From positions 1 through 29,606 of the forward strand of contig JAZRWA010000115.1 in NCBI GenBank assembly GCA_045599485.1: a stretch of 29,606 bases of DNA. The letters are read 5' to 3'. The notes beneath the pieces were generated by a model. It searched no databases. It was not told where the DNA came from and was given only the letters and a program-made list of their open reading frames with translations. Each line of letters starts with the position of its first letter. Positions within the stretch are counted from its first letter, which is position 1. The stretch comes from Clostridia bacterium (GTDB lineage Bacteria; Bacillota; Clostridia; Christensenellales; Aristaeellaceae). The translations under genes were made by a program, and so were the position numbers. Shown one piece after another: positions 10,889 through 26,241 of this stretch.

Positions 10889-10930
10889 GGGGCGGGCACA
10901 CTTTTCGGATCTGAAAAGCGTACCCGCCCC
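10889..10930. repeat. Two-tier palindromic hairpin element downstream of the multi-FMN gene
   Basis: Outer stem ggggcggg/cccgcccc, inner stem cttttc/gaaaag, right internal loop cgta. Same architecture as the elements at 19289, 19551, 23101, 23278 and 29460. No clear U-tract on either strand. Confidence 0.6.
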
Positions 10931-10947
10931 AAGGATTGATTTTATTC

Positions 10948-13900
10948 TTACAGGATCACGGGATTCTTTTCCGCTTCGGGAGCGGGAGCTTCCTCGGCAG
11001 GAGCGTAAGCGTTGTTGATGGCTTCCGCCACGGCATTGCTGGTGCAGGTCGCACCGGCGATCATTTCCACTTCGGTCACAGGCAGGCTCTTGCCCACATA
11101 GCTCTGGGCAAAGGCTTCGTCCAGCGCCTTGGCGCCATAGCCTTCGGTCTCGCAGAAATCGGCATCGCCGATCTTGAGGGCGGCAATGGCGTCACCGGAA
11201 ACGGTCACTTCCACGACCACGGGACCCATGAAGCCGCGGGCGCAGCCGGTCAGCACAACGGGTTCCTCGGTGGTGGCAGGAACGACTTCTTCGGTCACAG
11301 CAGGAGCCGCTTCCTCGGTCGCTTCGGGAGCAGTCACAGCGGCTTCTTCCTTGGCTTCCACAGCGGGAATGATCACGGGATTCTTTTCAGCCTCGGGAGC
11401 GGCGGCTTCCTCGGCAGGAGCATAAGCGTTGTTGATGGCGGCGGCAACGGCCTTGCTGGTGCAGGTGGCACCGGCAATGATCTCCACATCGGCGTCCGTC
11501 AGGGGCAGCGCCTTGCCCACATAGCTCTGGGCATAGGCCTCATCCAGCGCTTTGGCGCCGTAGCCTTCGGTCTCGCAGAAGGCATCGCTGCCGATCTTCA
11601 GAGCGGTAATGGCATCGTTGGCAACGGTCACTTCAACGGCGACCTCACCCATGAAGCCACGGGCGCAGCCGTTCAGCACGACAGCTTCCTCGGTGGTGGC
11701 GGGAACGACTTCTTCGGTCACAGCAGGGGCCGCTTCCTCGGTCGCTTCGGGAGCAGTCACAGCGGTTTCTTCCTTGGCTTCCACAGCGGGGATGATGACG
11801 GGATTCTTTTCGGCCTCGGGAGCAGCGGCTTCCTCGGCGGGAGCATAAGCATTGTTGATGGCGGCGGCGACAGCCTTGCTGGTGCAGGTGGCACCGGCGA
11901 TGATCTCCACATCGGCATCCGTCAGAGGCAGGCTCTTACCCACATAGCTCTGGGCATAGGCTTCATCCAGCGCCTTGGCGCCGTAGCCTTCGGTCTCCTT
12001 GAATTCGGCGTTGCCGATCTTCAGAGCGGTAATGGCATCGTTGGCAACAGTCACTTCAACGGCGACCTCACCCATGAAGCCGCGGGCGCAGCCGTTCAGC
12101 ACAGCGGCTTCGGCGGCAGCAGGGGCATCAGCCACGGGAGCTTCGGGAGCGGTCACAGGGGCTTCTTCCTTGGCTTCCACAGCGGGGATGATCACGGGAT
12201 TCTTTTCAGCCTCGGGAGCGGCGGCTTCCTCGGCAGGAGCATAAGCATTGTTGATGGCAGCGGCGACGGCCTTGCTGGTGCAGGTGGCACCGGCAATGAT
12301 CTCCACATCGGCATCCGTCAGGGGCAGGCTCTTGCCCACATAGCTCTGGGCATAGGCTTCATCCAGCGCCTTGGCGCCATAGCCTTCGGTCTCGCAGAAG
12401 GCATCGTTGCCGATCTTGAGGGCGGCAATGGCATCGTTGGCGACGGTCACTTCAACGGCGACTTCACCCATGAAGCCGCGGGCGGAGCCGTTCAGCACGG
12501 CGGCGGCGGGAGCGGCTTCCTTCTCGCCCACGGCGGGAATGATGACGGGGTTCTTTTCAGCCTCGGGAGCGGCGGCTTCCTCGGCGGGAGCATAAGCGTT
12601 GTTGATGGCGGCGGCGACAGCCTTGCTGGTGCAGGTGGCACCGGCAATGATCTCCACATCCGCATCGGTCAGGGGCAGGGTCTTGCCGATATAGCGCTGG
12701 GCATAAGCTTCATCCAGCACCTTGGCACCGCAGCCTTCGATCTCCTTGAATTCGTCGTTGCCGATCTTCAGGGCGGTGATGGCATTATCTTCGATGGTCA
12801 CTTCGACGGCGACCTCGCCCATGAAGCCGCGGGCAGCGCCCTTGACCGTGCCGGAGGCAGCGGCAGGAGCGGTAGTGGCTTCGGGAGCTTCGGGAGCGGC
12901 AGCGCTCATGGAGGCAAACGCCTCGTTGATGGCTTCCACAACGGCCTTGCTGGTGAAGGTGGCGCCGGAGATCATATCGACATCGCCCTCATTCAGAGGC
13001 AGAGCCTTGCCGATGAACTGACGCTGATAACCATCCGCCAGAGCCTTCTGGCCGAAGCCTTCGGTCTCCCTGAAGTTTTCATCACCGATCTTGATGGCCT
13101 CGATGGTGTTGTCGGCGGTCACGGCGATTTCAACGGCCACGGGGCCGGCGAAGCCCTGGGCGGAAGCGGCCACACGGGTACCCGCGGCGCTTTCGATATC
13201 GGGCAGTTCTTCGTTCATCACGGCGAAGGCGGCATTGATGGCTTCCACAACCGCCTTGCTGGTGAAGGTGGCGCCGGTAATGGCTTCCACATCGCCATCG
13301 TTCAGGGGCAGAGCCTTGCCGATGAACTGACGCTGGTAATCATCCTCAAGGGCCTTCAGGCCGAAGCCGGCGGTCTCATTGAAGTTGGCGTCACCGATCT
13401 TGATGGCTTCGATGGTGTTGTCCTCGGTCACGGCGATCTCCACCTTGACGGGGCCGGCGAAGCCCTGAGCGGAGGCAGAGGTACGCTCGCCCTTGGCATT
13501 CTCGATATCGGGCAGCGCAGCGGCGGCGGCACTGGCCTGCGCGGCATACGCTTCGGGGTCGGTCACATACAGCAGGATCTGGTTGACGGCCTTGTTGATG
13601 GCGGTACTGGTGATGGTGGCGCCGGACAGGGCATCCACTTCCTCGCCCAGAGCCGGCTGACCGGTCAGGCCGATGTACTGCGCCAGGTAGTCCGCACCGA
13701 TGCGGCCGCCGTAGTTGGGCGTTTCGGAGGAAACGTCCGCAACGATCTGGCCGATGAAGAATTCATCATTCACCAGCAGCTCCACGCGCACATCGCCGCC
13801 GAAGCCCGCCAGGCTGATGGCGTACCAGCCGTCGCCCAGCTCTTCCACATCGACCTGCGCGGTCTCGATGATGAAGCCGGCAACCTCACTCAGCGTGCCC

Positions 13901-14400
13901 ATGGCGTCATTGACACCGCGGATAACGGCCTTGGAAGTGATGGTGGCGGCCGTCAGGGCGTCGATCTCACCGCCGTCCTTGGACAGGGAGACAGGCGCGG
14001 TCTTGCCGGCAAACTGATCCTGGAAGGAAGCTTCCTTGGCACGAGCGCCCAGGCCGGCAGTTTCGGAGAAGTTGGCACCGCCCACGCTGATACCGGTGAT
14101 GGTACCATCGGGCTCCACACCCACGGTGATCTCGATCTCGCCGCCGAAGCCGTTGGTGGGCACGGTAGCGGTATAGCCGATCACCTCGCCGGCAGCATTC
14201 TTGGCGACATAAACATTGTTTTCCTCATCGTACTCAAAGCTCGTGGCCTCAGGCAGCAGCGCCTTGCGGGCCTCTTCCGCCTTGGCGGCGGTGTTGGCAT
14301 CGATCTGGGGCTTGGTCATGTTGTAGGTAGCAGCCAGCAGACCGGCGGCGATCACACAGATCAGGGTCAGCAGCAGCCAGGCGGGAATACGCTTCTTCAT
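10948..14400 (-). CDS. Membrane-anchored extracytosolic protein with nine tandem FMN_bind (RnfG/NqrC-type) flavinylation domains (1150 aa)
   Basis: RnfG-like N-terminus with one TM helix (MKKRIPAWLLLTLICVIAAGLLAATYNMTKP). Nine [ST/A][GA]AT-x-TS motifs, with the predicted flavinyl-Thr at residues 153, 262, 378, 481, 589, 706, 839, 979 and 1118. Pro/Ala/Glu-rich linkers. GGAG RBS. Immediately downstream of apbE in the same orientation. Confidence 0.9.
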   Translation of the reverse strand: MKKRIPAWLLLTLICVIAAGLLAATYNMTKPQIDANTAAKAEEARKALLPEATSFEYDEENNVYVAKNAAGEVIGYTATVPTNGFGGEIEITVGVEPDGTITGISVGGANFSETAGLGARAKEASFQDQFAGKTAPVSLSKDGGEIDALTAATITSKAVIRGVNDAMGTLSEVAGFIIETAQVDVEELGDGWYAISLAGFGGDVRVELLVNDEFFIGQIVADVSSETPNYGGRIGADYLAQYIGLTGQPALGEEVDALSGATITSTAINKAVNQILLYVTDPEAYAAQASAAAAALPDIENAKGERTSASAQGFAGPVKVEIAVTEDNTIEAIKIGDANFNETAGFGLKALEDDYQRQFIGKALPLNDGDVEAITGATFTSKAVVEAINAAFAVMNEELPDIESAAGTRVAASAQGFAGPVAVEIAVTADNTIEAIKIGDENFRETEGFGQKALADGYQRQFIGKALPLNEGDVDMISGATFTSKAVVEAINEAFASMSAAAPEAPEATTAPAAASGTVKGAARGFMGEVAVEVTIEDNAITALKIGNDEFKEIEGCGAKVLDEAYAQRYIGKTLPLTDADVEIIAGATCTSKAVAAAINNAYAPAEEAAAPEAEKNPVIIPAVGEKEAAPAAAVLNGSARGFMGEVAVEVTVANDAIAALKIGNDAFCETEGYGAKALDEAYAQSYVGKSLPLTDADVEIIAGATCTSKAVAAAINNAYAPAEEAAAPEAEKNPVIIPAVEAKEEAPVTAPEAPVADAPAAAEAAVLNGCARGFMGEVAVEVTVANDAITALKIGNAEFKETEGYGAKALDEAYAQSYVGKSLPLTDADVEIIAGATCTSKAVAAAINNAYAPAEEAAAPEAEKNPVIIPAVEAKEETAVTAPEATEEAAPAVTEEVVPATTEEAVVLNGCARGFMGEVAVEVTVANDAITALKIGSDAFCETEGYGAKALDEAYAQSYVGKALPLTDADVEIIAGATCTSKAVAAAINNAYAPAEEAAAPEAEKNPVIIPAVEAKEEAAVTAPEATEEAAPAVTEEVVPATTEEPVVLTGCARGFMGPVVVEVTVSGDAIAALKIGDADFCETEGYGAKALDEAFAQSYVGKSLPVTEVEMIAGATCTSNAVAEAINNAYAPAEEAPAPEAEKNPVIL
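10954..12840 (-). repeat. In-frame tandem repeat array: five near-identical FMN-domain-plus-linker units (417, 423, 396, 351 nt, plus a partial fifth)
   Basis: The marker gat(c/g)acggg(a/g)ttcttttc... recurs at 10954, 11371, 11794, 12190 and 12541. All unit lengths are multiples of 3. Encoded domains 7 and 8 differ at about 5 of about 110 residues. Confidence 0.9.
12910..13512 (-). repeat. Older in-frame tandem duplication: two 309-nt units encoding FMN domains 3 and 4
   Basis: gatggcttccacaac(g/c)gccttgctggtgaaggtggcgccgg recurs at 12928 and 13237 (103-aa period). The proteins PDIENAKGERTSASAQGFAGPV... and PDIESAAGTRVAASAQGFAGPV... align throughout. Confidence 0.8.
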
Positions 14401-14449
14401 GTGCGTCCATCTCCATTGTTTTGTTTATTGAAAGGTTTCCCCATTGGAA

Positions 14450-15487
14450 TCATTGGGTAAAGGGCAGATACGTTTTGAAGCCGGTCGTCCAGAAGACGTT
14501 GCCGTCCTCCTCCACCCACATGGCTTCGGCGTCGTATTTTTCAAGCAGGGGCAGCGCGTCCTCCGCGCTCATCAGGTACAGCGCGGTGGAAAGGGCATCG
14601 CCGATGCCGCTGTCCGCGCAGATGATGGTCACGGCCTTGTACCGGCGGGCCGGCATCAGGGTATCGGGATCGATAATGTGGTGGTAGTTGACACCATCCA
14701 CGGTGTAAAAGCGCTGATAGTCACCGCTGGTCACGACGGAACCCTCCGTCATGCTCAGGGTCGCCAGGTAGCTGTTGCTGTAGGGATCAAAGGGATCGGT
14801 CACCCCCACGGTCCATTTGGCGCCGTCCGGCTTGGCCCCATGCACCAGCACGTTGCCGCCCACACTGATCAGATACCCCTCCGGAAAATCCCTGCAGGAT
14901 AGCTCTGCGGCATAGCCCTTGGCCAGGGCACCCACATCCAGCCTTGCTTCGGGATCGGTCAGCCGCACGGTGCACGCCTCGGGATCGATCTGAAGCAGAT
15001 CCATGCCCGTATGCCGTGCAGCCTCAGCCAGCACCTCCGCGTCCGGCAGATACGCCTTGTCCGGATGCGCGATGCCGTATTCACGTGCCTCATGCCACAC
15101 ATTCAGCACCGCGCCCAGCGTGACGTCGACGCGTCCCGCGGTCAGCACCGCCACCTCGCGGGCAAAGAGCAGAAAATCGATCATCTCTTTGCTGACGCTG
15201 ACCGGCTCACCGCCCGCGGCATCGTTGACGGTCTTGAGGTTGTTGACCCCCTCATAATCGTTGTAGATGTCAAACAGGGCGTTATAGGTCCGCATCGATT
15301 GCGTAAACCGCTCCACCTCTTCATCAAAGGCGGCACGTGATTCGGCATAGCCCATCACATAGGTCACGGTGTCAAACAGATCGAGCAGCGTGGTCTGAAA
15401 GCGCACGGGTGCTCCGCCGGCTCCGGCGGGGACAGCTCCCATCAGCAGAATCAGCGCCGTCATCAGGCACAATATCTTCCGCTTCAT
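14450..15487 (-). CDS. apbE: ApbE-family FAD:protein FMN transferase, secreted or membrane-anchored (345 aa)
   Basis: N-terminal signal/anchor MKRKILCLMTALILLMGAVPAGA. ApbE motifs ISVGGNVLVHG, TSGDYQRFY, HHIIDPDT. ATG 15487 follows AAGGAA. The track ORF extends to an upstream GTG with no support. Confidence 0.88.
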   Translation of the reverse strand: MKRKILCLMTALILLMGAVPAGAGGAPVRFQTTLLDLFDTVTYVMGYAESRAAFDEEVERFTQSMRTYNALFDIYNDYEGVNNLKTVNDAAGGEPVSVSKEMIDFLLFAREVAVLTAGRVDVTLGAVLNVWHEAREYGIAHPDKAYLPDAEVLAEAARHTGMDLLQIDPEACTVRLTDPEARLDVGALAKGYAAELSCRDFPEGYLISVGGNVLVHGAKPDGAKWTVGVTDPFDPYSNSYLATLSMTEGSVVTSGDYQRFYTVDGVNYHHIIDPDTLMPARRYKAVTIICADSGIGDALSTALYLMSAEDALPLLEKYDAEAMWVEEDGNVFWTTGFKTYLPFTQ

Positions 15488-15598
15488 TGGCTTTATTTCC
15501 TTTTCAAAATGGTTATTTCTTTGGGTTTTCGATCCGAAAGAAACCGGCTTCACCCGCGCATGGGTATAAAAAGCCCTTGTTTCCCGGTTCGGTATTTC

Positions 15599-15627
15599 AT
15601 TATAACAGAAATTGCCCCTCTGTACAA
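15599..15627 (-). promoter_or_regulatory. Sigma-70-type promoter for the apbE / multi-FMN operon
   Basis: Minus strand TTGTAC (15627-15622), 17 nt, TATAAT (15604-15599). Leader of about 105 nt. Confidence 0.5.
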
Positions 15628-15819: not shown

Positions 15820-16728
15820 ATGAGCGTACTGGACAGACTGATCCGCAGCGACAAGCTCAGCGAGCTGCTGGAGGCGGCCAAAAACGGCGCTGCCTCGGCC
15901 TATGAGGTCAGCGAGGGCGCGCGCGCAGCGCTGGCCGCGGCCGTAACGCTGGCGTCCGGCCGGCAGGTGATCGCCGTCTGCCCTTCCGAAAGGGAAGGCG
16001 CCGCGCTGGCCGAGGACGCCCGTCAGCTGGGGGTCAATGCCGCCGCGCTGCCCGCCCGTGAAAGGCAGTTTGCCCGTTCGGTCGCCAGCCGGGATGCCAG
16101 CTGGCAGCGTGTCAGCATGCTGGGCGCCCTGCGTCGCGGCGAAACACGCCTTTTGTTTATCTCCGCCGACATGCTTTTGTGGAAGACCACGCCCCCGCAG
16201 AAGTGGGAAATGATGAGTGCCCCCCTCGAGACCGACGCCGAGATGGACCCCAAGGCCCTCCTCCGGCATCTGATCTCCGCCGGCTACGAGCGTGTGGAAA
16301 TGGTGGAAGGCCGCGGCCAGTGCGCCCTGCGCGGCGCCATTCTGGACGTCTTTCCGCCCGACAGCCTCAACGCCCTGCGCATTGAGTTTTTTGACAATAC
16401 CATCGATTCCATCCGTTCCTTTGACTGCATCACCCAGCGTTCGGTGGAGCATCTGCATTCCGTGTGCATCAGCCCCGCCGCCGAATACGTATTGACCCCG
16501 CCCGAAAAGGCCGAAGCGGGCGCACGCATGCACTCGCTGCTGGAAAGCGCGCAGGAGCGCTTCCGCGGCACGGCAGATGGCCTTTCCGCCCTTCTGGCCG
16601 ATGCCGAAACGCTTCAAAACGGCGGTGCCCTGGCCCAGATGGACCTGTGGGCCGGCGTGCTGATGCATCAGACCGCGCCCTTGACCGCCTGGCCGCAGCA
16701 GCCCATCGTGCTGATCTTTTCGCCGTAG
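15820..16728 (+). CDS. mfd: Transcription-repair coupling factor Mfd, N-terminal segment, ending at an in-frame TAG (16726-16728)
   Basis: ATG 15820 after GGAGGGG. UvrB-homology-type N-terminal region. Same reading frame as the 16798..19284 ORF. Confidence 0.85.
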   Translation: MSVLDRLIRSDKLSELLEAAKNGAASAYEVSEGARAALAAAVTLASGRQVIAVCPSEREGAALAEDARQLGVNAAALPARERQFARSVASRDASWQRVSMLGALRRGETRLLFISADMLLWKTTPPQKWEMMSAPLETDAEMDPKALLRHLISAGYERVEMVEGRGQCALRGAILDVFPPDSLNALRIEFFDNTIDSIRSFDCITQRSVEHLHSVCISPAAEYVLTPPEKAEAGARMHSLLESAQERFRGTADGLSALLADAETLQNGGALAQMDLWAGVLMHQTAPLTAWPQQPIVLIFSP

Positions 16729-25635: not shown

Positions 25636-26241
25636 CTATTGCCGGGTGGTATGCCCGTCCGCCGGGCAGGGATTCTTGATGACCGGCAGGCCGAACTTGC
25701 GGGCAATGTGGATCACGTCCTTTTCGGGCGTATAGATCATGGGGCGGATGACGTCGATCCTGGGGTCATCCATGTGCGTCACCGGCGCAAAGGTGTACAG
25801 CCTGGCCTCGTGCAGCAGGCTCATGAGCAGCGTTTCCTCCGCGTCTTCCCGGTGATGCCCCAGCGCCAGCTTGGTGCAGTGAAGCTCCGCCGCCATGCGC
25901 AGCAGCGCCCCACGGCGAATGCGCGCGCACAGGGCGCAGGGGTGCGTTTCTCTGCGCACCTCAAACAGCTGATAAAACAGGTCGCTTTCCTGCACGTGAT
26001 ATTCCACGCCCAACTCCTTACACAACTGTTTGACAGGTGTTGTATCAAATGGCTCGCCGGGCTTCAGGGTAATGCCCACCACCTCAAAGGGCTTTGCGGC
26101 AAAACGCGAATAGACCGCCAGCGCGCGCAGCAGCACCAGGCTGTCCTTGCCGCCCGATACGCCCACCGCCACACGGTCCCCCCGATGGATCATGTCAAAA
26201 TCCGTATCCGCCCTGCGGATATCTCCAAGCAGCCGCTTCAT
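25636..26241 (-). CDS. TtcA-like PP-loop ATP pyrophosphatase (tRNA thiolation family), as delimited by TAG under the standard code (201 aa; 240 aa if TAG is decoded)
   Basis: PP-loop VGVSGGKDS, Cys ligands PCALCARIRRG and NPCPADG. ATG 26241 lies 5 nt after GGAGGGGG. It is the only ORF in the window ending in TAG. Confidence 0.82.
   Translation of the reverse strand: MKRLLGDIRRADTDFDMIHRGDRVAVGVSGGKDSLVLLRALAVYSRFAAKPFEVVGITLKPGEPFDTTPVKQLCKELGVEYHVQESDLFYQLFEVRRETHPCALCARIRRGALLRMAAELHCTKLALGHHREDAEETLLMSLLHEARLYTFAPVTHMDDPRIDVIRPMIYTPEKDVIHIARKFGLPVIKNPCPADGHTTRQ

Follow-up and report, generated by a model that had tools for sequence, protein, structure and literature searches.

Genes at the locus

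The subject of this analysis is a pair of minus-strand genes in a 29,606-nt stretch of DNA from a Clostridia bacterium (contig JAZRWA010000115.1; the whole stretch is referred to below as the window). The upstream gene encodes an ApbE-family flavin transferase and the downstream gene a protein of 1150 amino acids (aa) with nine FMN_bind domains (FMN, flavin mononucleotide). The minus strand was identified as the coding one from the GC content at third codon positions and from family matches. The open reading frame (ORF) of apbE spans 14450-15553, and the ATG at 15487 is its likely start, giving a protein of 345 residues. Shine-Dalgarno-like sequences were found 5' of the ATG codons of both genes, which are separated by a gap of 49 nt. 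The promoter-like site upstream of apbE matched 10 of 12 consensus positions; four promoter-like sites were seen in the region, as compared with 1.3 expected from shuffles. Past the large gene lies a hairpin for which none of 200 shuffled sequences gave an equally good fold. It has no T-run on its 3' side and is probably a terminator or an RNA-stabilising element. The gene beyond it, serC, has a separate promoter-like site at 10721-10693. The apbE gene and the gene for the 1150-aa protein are one two-gene transcription unit, as the initial annotation of this DNA had stated when it described an operon with its own promoter (15599-15627). The positions of all features are collected in Table 1. 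An ORF of 1174 codons antisense to the large gene (10936-14460, plus strand) had no family match, and we set it aside as a stop-free by-product of GC-rich repeats.

Table 1. Positions of the two genes, of the parts of the large protein (aa, amino acids; d1 to d9, FMN_bind domains numbered from the membrane outward), of the associated signals and of further in-frame TAG codons
Feature	Sequence	Position	Strand	Basis or remark
Sigma-70-like promoter site 5' of apbE, TGTACA-16-TATAAT with TG extension	window	15599..15626	-	consensus match only
ApbE/Ftp-family FAD:protein FMN transferase (FAD, flavin adenine dinucleotide), 345 aa, N-terminal signal/anchor segment	window	14450..15487	-	PF02424, 7esa_A alignment
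Multi-flavinylated RnfG-type protein, 1150 aa, nine FMN_bind domains	window	10948..14400	-	Pfam, NCBIfam; stop TAA, no in-frame TAG
RnfG-like module, aa 1-175: transmembrane helix (about aa 5-27), juxtamembrane helix, d1 (acceptor Thr153 in DALTAAT)	window	13876..14400	-	
Membrane and juxtamembrane helix, aa 1-79; d1, aa 80-171	window			
d2, aa 195-280, DALSGAT	window	13561..13818	-	divergent second FMN domain; d1-d2 linker short, not Pro/Ala-rich
d3 and d4, aa 309-499	window	12904..13476	-	pair 83% identical
d5 to d9, aa 521-1136, each AGATCTS	window	10993..12840	-	72-95% identical; linkers of 30-54 aa containing the motif EAAAPEAEKNPVIIPAV
18-bp perfect hairpin, 18 nt past the stop codon of the large gene	window	10889..10930	-	-40.4 kcal/mol, z = -6.3
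In-frame TAG codons	L005	2631-2633, 1338-1340		
In-frame TAG codons	L091	10176-10178, 5932-5934		

The large protein begins with a complete RnfG subunit

The Pfam profile FMN_bind (PF04205) matched the large protein with 371 bits (cut-off 22) in nine separate stretches, and single domains also matched the rnfG and NqrC models. Sub-threshold partial matches to DUF167, Zona_CL2 and Lip_prot_lig_C fell within the FMN_bind repeats and were disregarded. Residues 1-173 matched full-length RnfG models of NCBIfam. Residues 1-179 searched alone against TIGR01947 (rnfG) scored 110.5 bits (cut-off 102), with the alignment covering model positions 2-185 of 187. Using phmmer, the N-terminal module was aligned with RnfG of the Clostridium tetanomorphum Rnf complex (7zc6_G, E 7e-21) over residues 9-167, the transmembrane helix included, and a Foldseek search with the AlphaFold2 model returned the RnfG chains 7zc6_G and 9eri_G at the top (target-normalised TM-scores 0.60-0.65), followed by NqrC. 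The N-terminal 175 residues are a complete RnfG subunit, consisting of a transmembrane helix and an FMN domain, and eight further FMN_bind domains follow. The RnfG-like anchor and the nine domains of the initial annotation were therefore both recovered with the family models. Four residues of the transmembrane and juxtamembrane helices (L11, L22, T29 and I33) are invariant across the family, which suggests a specific packing within a complex, beyond what a plain anchor would need.

The large protein has a lone hydrophobic segment at about residues 5-27 with KKR or KRK before it (positive-inside), and ApbE has a single one at about residues 4-23, likewise preceded by basic residues of KKR/KRK type. 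From this arrangement the bulk of both proteins is predicted to lie outside the cytosol; a cytoplasmic topology, which would have spoken against the initial annotation, was not predicted. A lipoprotein anchor for the large protein was considered and rejected, as there is no lipobox and the only N-terminal Cys stands in T-L-I-C inside the helix. The protein is strongly acidic (178 Asp+Glu vs 69 Lys+Arg). It has more than one FMN-binding domain, is predicted to be extracytosolic and is co-transcribed with apbE, the features by which a multi-flavinylated protein (MFP) is recognised. The host presumably has a single membrane, since the similarity of its Pgk places it among gut Clostridia: Pgk of the window is 99% identical to that of a metagenome-assembled genome (MAG) from horse, 85-88% identical to those of gut MAGs and 72% identical to those of Hominenteromicrobium and Acutalibacteraceae.

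The upstream protein matched the Pfam profile ApbE (PF02424) with an E-value of 1e-61 and has the N-terminal hydrophobic segment described above, in agreement with the exported ApbE-family protein that had been proposed; both profiles suggested in the initial annotation were matched. Its best relative of solved structure was 7esa_A, an FAD:protein FMN transferase (E 1.9e-35), which we take to be the Listeria enzyme FmnB. The YHHI-DP-T, GD-LSTA and AKG motifs are conserved in this alignment. The NCBIfam equivalog for the E. coli-type ApbE was missed (95 bits vs a cut-off of 498). By these scores the protein is placed as a member of the ApbE family and not as a specific orthologue of the E. coli type.

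Nine domains, a compact proximal part and a flexible distal part

The nine domains differ in their relatedness. d1 and d2 share 30-42% identity with the other domains, and d3/d4 and d5-d9 form two groups of close copies (Table 1). The linkers measure, from the membrane outward, 23, 28, 15, 21, 30, 45, 54 and 54 residues. They consist of 30% Ala, 19% Glu and 13% Pro, so that the linkers rich in Pro, Ala and Glu that had been described were found again, the d1-d2 linker being the exception. The linker motif EKNP(V/I)II was found only in the window protein and in its relative P0002. The full-length AlphaFold2 model, a prediction of the domain array that the initial annotation had proposed, contained nine confident domains (pLDDT about 80-93) with a pTM of 0.29. 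The five distal linkers and the tail had pLDDT values below 50. The links joining d1, d2, d3 and d4 are shorter and more confident; that between d1 and d2 reached pLDDT 63-68 and hence is not predicted to be disordered. The picture that the model offers is that of a compact proximal part (d1-d4) followed by a distal string of beads (d5-d9).

The closest relative of the large protein belongs to the MAG 'Clostridia bacterium Horse_feces223', whose protein is 78% identical overall and 91.5% identical over the first 283 residues. When species-representative genomes were scanned with the full large protein, the 7.1-kb contig of Horse_feces223 was the only match. The synteny of mfd, ApbE and MFP is the same as in the window, and the ApbE orthologue, also of 345 aa, is 94.5% identical. 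The relative's protein (P0002, locus L005) has three domains of the d3/d4 type, and the window protein two, so that the copy number differs. The contig of the relative breaks off within the multi-flavin gene, and the contig with its serC begins a little past it, indicating that the repeats broke that assembly.

Both of these peculiarities of the relative, together with the metagenomic origin of the window contig, could be taken to mean that the nine-domain protein is not real and is either an assembly artefact or a decaying pseudogene. We regard this as highly improbable. The gene is an uninterrupted frame of 1150 codons, each of its nine domains is recognised by Pfam, and more than 600 homologues with 3-12 domains exist. 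On the DNA, Tandem Repeats Finder reported periods of 423, 351 and 309 nt, and the longest exact repeat within the gene is only 59 nt. The copies differ mostly at synonymous positions: identity between them is 0.92-0.98 at codon positions 1+2 as compared with 0.74-0.87 at position 3, which indicates purifying selection on each copy. Because of the shortness of the exact repeats and the concentration of the differences at third codon positions, the count of nine domains is credible.

Related proteins take the place of RnfG in rnf operons

Genomic context was seen for a sample of the homologues through contig look-ups and one metagenome scan. Complete views of a multi-FMN gene beside rnf were obtained for seven loci (L002, L003, L007, L008, L010, L012 and L022). 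The multi-FMN gene was located immediately upstream of rnfC-D-E-A-B in 7/7 of them; in all seven rnfD abuts rnfE, with no usual rnfG between the two, and no other FMN_bind gene is present. The same scan yielded about 60 ordinary operons of the order rnfC-D-G-E-A-B, in which G is a protein of 200 aa with one motif. The comparison of the seven loci lacking another G with these ordinary operons leads to the conclusion that the multi-flavin protein is the G subunit in that clade. The multi-FMN proteins of the seven loci carry 4 to 9 flavinylation motifs, and a DUF1622 or NusG_II gene sometimes stands between the multi-FMN gene and rnfC. In rnf-linked loci the multi-FMN gene nearly always comes after a gene for a truncated FAD synthetase-like protein of about 200 aa (PF06574 only), the general order being (ApbE)-FAD_syn-multiFMN protein-(DUF1622/NusG_II)-rnfC-D-E-A-B.

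Over its first 290 residues, in which d1 and d2 are collinear, the window protein is 49-56% identical to the rnf-linked proteins, as compared with about 40% identity to another ApbE-paired subfamily, the MFP-ApbE pairs beside clpC. Its d2 is collinear with d2 of the rnf-operon homologues. The nearest arrangement is ApbE-FAD_syn-MFP-DUF1622-rnfCDEAB, present in L007, L009 and L010, and judged by gene order the ApbE-MFP pair of the window looks like a detached piece of such an operon.

The species of locus L007 (ERZ28656188 scaffold_10) carries an eight-flavin RnfG, and its RnfC was found on more than 1000 contigs in gut metagenomes, including one of 3.33 Mb. When the RnfC of the nearest rnf-linked relative was used as the query, the 120 matches listed were all 99-100% identical and represented one very common species. 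Given the abundance of the L007 species, multi-flavin Rnf complexes would therefore not be rare curiosities.

Single-domain RnfG-like genes encoding proteins of 179-192 aa, 47-50% identical to d1 of the window protein, were found in L015-L019, L020 and L021, with no rnf gene within 10 kb. These genes follow MgtE, (ApbE), a NusG_II-domain gene and a gene for a membrane protein of the Hpre_diP_synt_I family. In L003 and L007, too, the multi-flavin gene is flanked by NusG_II and Hpre_diP_synt_I genes, and this recurrence suggests that they may form a conserved accessory module.

Flavinylation motifs and distal cysteines

The nine motif sites read TAATITS, SGATITS, TGATFTS, SGATFTS and, in five domains, AGATCTS. 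In 9/9 domains the acceptor Thr is kept together with the Ala before it, and the motif (S/T/A)(G/A)AT-x-TS that had been assigned to each domain was thus present throughout. The strict published ApbE motif, D-x-x-[S/T]-G-A-[S/T], is fitted by d2 and d4. The departures from it are Glu at -6 (d3 and d5-d9), Ala at -3 (d5-d9) and Ala at -2 (d1). We compared these sites with 889 motifs from 120 homologues (121 proteins including that of the window). Glu at -6 occurred in 22% and Ala at -3 in 25% of the 889 motifs and, since both variants are so frequent, they are probably accepted by the cognate ApbE enzymes. Ala at -2, as in d1, was the usual residue of first domains in 25 of the 121 proteins scanned.

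In d5-d9 a Cys directly follows the acceptor Thr (residues 590, 707, 839, 980 and 1119). The window protein has 12 extracytosolic Cys residues in total, and each of d5-d9 contains one or two in addition to the Cys at +1. None of the 889 homologue motifs has Cys at +1, a feature unique to the window protein, and extracytosolic Cys is missing altogether from 76 of the 120 homologues. In the closest relative the +1 residue is Arg, with a Cys two residues further on.

A possible outward branch from an Rnf complex encoded elsewhere

The role most plausible for an ApbE and an extracytosolic multi-FMN protein encoded side by side would be that of an electron relay, and to this extent the claim of the initial annotation stands. 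The donor is likely an Rnf complex encoded elsewhere in the genome, since the protein begins with a genuine RnfG module and the nearest homologues replace rnfG in rnf operons; the description of the module as self-contained, with its donor unknown, was for the same reasons not upheld. The reading that we favour, and hold to be somewhat more probable than all others together, is that the protein is a multi-flavin RnfG subunit whose gene has been separated from rnfCDEAB. Its RnfG module would take the G position among RnfC, D, E, A and B, and the adjacent ApbE would attach FMN through a phosphoester bond to the Thr of each of the nine motifs at the outer face of the membrane. The d1 flavin would sit in the normal path of electrons from ferredoxin to NAD+. 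From d1 electrons would branch outward, first to the compactly linked d2-d4 and then to the five near-identical domains d5-d9, which are presumably near-isopotential and tethered on disordered Pro/Ala/Glu linkers. Transfer between the distal domains would occur by collision, in the manner of a bucket brigade and not along a rigid wire, and the end point would be putative acceptors in or beyond the cell wall such as soluble flavins or quinones, Fe(III), disulfides or O2. The distal linkers (about 200 residues) and nine domains of about 3 nm each could in principle reach over tens of nanometres, more than the thickness of a Gram-positive wall; this estimate was made from general polymer dimensions.

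Several observations weigh against this reading. No rnf, nqr, ndh2, eet or dmk gene was found by a Pfam scan of the ORFs in the 29.6-kb window, as the initial annotation had already noted, and tblastn with RnfC, D, E, A and B as queries gave no match in it, nor is any respiratory gene present; the window protein is consequently not encoded in an rnf operon, as a subunit named RnfG would be. The 18 other ORFs of the window scanned with Pfam are all housekeeping genes. Single-domain RnfG-like genes apart from rnf exist in L015-L021, and a second multi-FMN subfamily lies beside ApbE and apart from rnf in L001, L004 and L011. In a related genus (L089 and L090, Pgk 86% identical) there is no multi-flavin gene or apbE within 10 kb of pgk. 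The gene pair codes for neither an acceptor nor a terminal reductase domain nor a wall anchor. As for flavin loading, seven of the nine domains depart from the strict motif, and a Gly-to-Ala exchange at -2, as in d1, has been reported to reduce flavinylation of a model protein. Because RnfG-like genes occur apart from rnf operons, likeness to RnfG is by itself no proof of membership in an Rnf complex, and we consider the RnfG character of the module to be strong but not decisive evidence for an Rnf partner.

The isolation of the gene pair from rnf could also mean, in line with the initial annotation, that the protein is a stand-alone conduit whose N-terminal helix is only an anchor and which receives electrons from another donor (quinol-linked, NDH-2/EetB-like or a novel partner) with no link to Rnf. 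The promoter-like site and hairpin of the unit, the housekeeping contexts of the MFP-ApbE pairs in L001, L004 and L011 and the orphan single-domain RnfG-like genes would all fit such an arrangement. Against this speak the N-terminal module, which passes the curated RnfG threshold and matches RnfG of a solved complex in sequence and RnfG chains in fold, and its conserved transmembrane helix. Moreover, the nearest subfamilies provide the only G subunit in their own rnf operons, and no gene for an alternative donor adjoins the pair. On balance we judge a stand-alone conduit to be unlikely.

The properties of the distal domains raise a different possibility, namely that the many tethered flavins do not form an outward conduit and serve the cell surface as a redox buffer or as a scavenger, storing electrons or reducing O2 and reactive species close to the membrane of a strict anaerobe; the donor could again be Rnf. 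Five near-identical domains, probably isopotential, would provide capacity and no thermodynamic gradient, the reduced form of SaFMN3, a three-domain member, is re-oxidised by O2 (PMC10339131), the linkers are flexible in a model of no defined overall shape, and both a terminal reductase and a wall anchor are absent. The linkers themselves fit reach better than storage, as they lengthen outward (15-28 residues, then 30, 45, 54 and 54) and have the Pro/Ala/Glu composition typical of extended spacers, and a buffer or scavenger appears to us improbable.

The same distal domains limit the multihaem comparison that the initial annotation had drawn. As they are placed on linkers predicted to be disordered, their flavins would not be held at fixed tunnelling distances like the haems of a cytochrome wire, and the five are probably isopotential; the analogy to multihaem cytochromes would be functional at best, and not structural. 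A bolder version of the multi-flavin RnfG reading takes the distal cysteines into account. In it the nine-flavin protein would be the sole G subunit of the lineage's Rnf, encoded apart from rnfCDEAB, so that ferredoxin/NADH flux would in part be obligatorily exported across the wall, and the +1 Cys residues of d5-d9 would be thiol partners of the flavins, with which the tail, instead of relaying electrons passively, would act as a flavin-thiol reductase on extracellular disulfides or thiol shuttles. We put this forward as a long shot.

Neighbouring genes and lineage

On one side the unit is flanked by genes for an amino-acid ABC transporter, tpi, pgk, a serA-like gene and serC, and on the other by mfd, recD2 and a phosphoglucomutase gene. 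Rfam at gathering thresholds detected no riboswitch (for example, an FMN riboswitch) or other RNA family in the window, and no tRNA was found in it. In the sister genus of L089 and L090, for which a 418-kb contig was looked at, synteny is not conserved: the pgk neighbourhood is rearranged relative to the window and, as stated above, contains neither a multi-flavin gene nor apbE; the arrangement pgk-serA-serC-MFP-ApbE-mfd therefore appears to be confined to the immediate lineage of the window.

In-frame TAG codons in the lineage

Several otherwise intact housekeeping genes of this lineage contain TAG codons in frame. The mfd gene of the window is a single frame of 1169 codons, interrupted only by a TAG at 16726-16728 (codon 317). 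A TtcA-like PP-loop gene 'ends' at the TAG at 25636-25638, and its homology to PDB 6scy, which has Glu at the corresponding position, continues through this codon. The relative MAG contains the same TAG in mfd and a second one in that gene, and further TAG codons in ABC ATPase and GT2 genes, so that the first mfd TAG is common to two independent MAGs. At all three sites that differ between the two MAGs, one genome has TAG where the other reads GAG (Glu), and TAG is aligned with glutamate at 4/4 comparable sites. Codon 317 of mfd is a variable column among 150 Mfd homologues, and homology continues past it. No sequence motif shared around the TAG codons was found, which makes a base-calling or methylation artefact unlikely, and among about 33 genes of the lineage there was no convincing TAG terminator. 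The known bacterial reassignments of stop codons all involve UGA according to the 2021 Codetta screen (PMC8629427), and genome-wide reassignment of UAG has been reported only for archaea, to pyrrolysine. The alignments mark amber-to-Glu reassignment or suppression in an uncultured member of the horse-gut Clostridia as a candidate and a lead only, given the small sample and the possibility of pseudogenes. It may be more surprising than the multi-flavin finding itself. The two genes of the unit end with TAA and TGA, have no in-frame TAG and are unaffected by this question.

Comparison with known systems

The inference of a flavin conduit is the standing hypothesis of the field and is not new. 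From 1530 genomes, most of them Gram-positive, Méheust et al. (eLife 2021) described 2081 'multi-flavinylated proteins' carrying up to 13 sites, and already proposed both the analogy to multihaem cytochromes and long-distance transfer (PMC8238504). In the same work it was suggested that multi-flavinylated RnfGs lead electrons outward from Rnf along a second path (PMC8238504). Huang et al. (mSystems 2024) presented AlphaFold 'beads-on-a-string' models and stated that the function was still unclear (PMC11334425). The window protein resembles the proteins of these two studies in being extracytosolic by prediction, in having more than one FMN_bind domain and an ApbE alongside, in its mostly Gram-positive company, in its predicted beads-on-a-string form and in the long-range relay proposed for it, and with nine domains it stays below the published maximum of 13. 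It differs from the multi-flavinylated RnfGs in lying outside any rnf cluster and being paired only with ApbE, and from multi-flavinylated proteins in general in the Cys next to the acceptor Thr of its distal domains, absent from the 120 homologues, and in a gene cluster without a wall-binding domain or a reductase partner. Apart from this split gene arrangement and the unusual cysteines, the window protein itself adds little to the published survey. This example and, even more, its relatives give the multi-flavin proteins a concrete and testable donor in Rnf: throughout one clade of gut Clostridia, RnfG is represented solely by a protein that carries about 4 to 9 flavin domains. If it is true that such a tail drains Rnf electrons outward, these fermenters would possess an Rnf that acts as an extracellular reductase driven by ferredoxin or NADH, and this would matter in the gut for energy conservation, for tolerance of oxygen and for electron transfer between species.

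RnfG (7ZC6 chain G from C. tetanomorphum and 9ERI chain G from Acetobacterium woodii) and its paralogue NqrC share with the window protein an N-terminal transmembrane helix and an FMN_bind domain with a flavinylated Thr, which for the window protein is a prediction. Canonical RnfG has about 190-230 aa and one flavin, and its gene lies between rnfD and rnfE, whereas the window protein has eight flavodomains more, and its gene stands away from rnf. Its d1 has TAAT where RnfG has [S/T]GAT.

Tong et al. (BBA Adv 2023) showed that members with three and four flavin sites carry covalent FMN when expressed with ApbE; the three similar domains had a single midpoint potential of -184 mV, and the reduced protein reacted with O2 (PMC10339131). 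These proteins, SaFMN3 and CbFMN4, are like the window protein in their tandem, highly similar FMN_bind domains, their flexible linkers and the flavin transferase gene at their side, and covalent loading has been demonstrated for them. They have three and four domains, were studied in soluble form and have no reported N-terminal module of the RnfG type.

PplA of the Listeria monocytogenes extracellular electron transfer system (FmnB, Ndh2, EetA/B and DmkA/B) is also surface-exposed, has more than one ApbE-flavinylated FMN_bind domain and passes electrons to extracellular acceptors. Unlike the window protein, PplA is a two-domain lipoprotein fed from the quinone pool via Ndh2 and EetAB; the window protein has an RnfG helix as its anchor in place of a lipobox, and the window contains no ndh2, eet or dmk gene of a Listeria-type locus. 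An analogue in function would be MmcA, a multihaem cytochrome c encoded with the Rnf cluster of Methanosarcina acetivorans (bioRxiv 10.1101/2022.07.20.500911). Like the proposed multi-flavin RnfG, MmcA is an extracytosolic protein with several cofactors that is attached to Rnf and offers electrons an outward route. In contrast to it, MmcA carries haems and not flavins, belongs to an unrelated family and is an extra subunit, not a replacement of RnfG.

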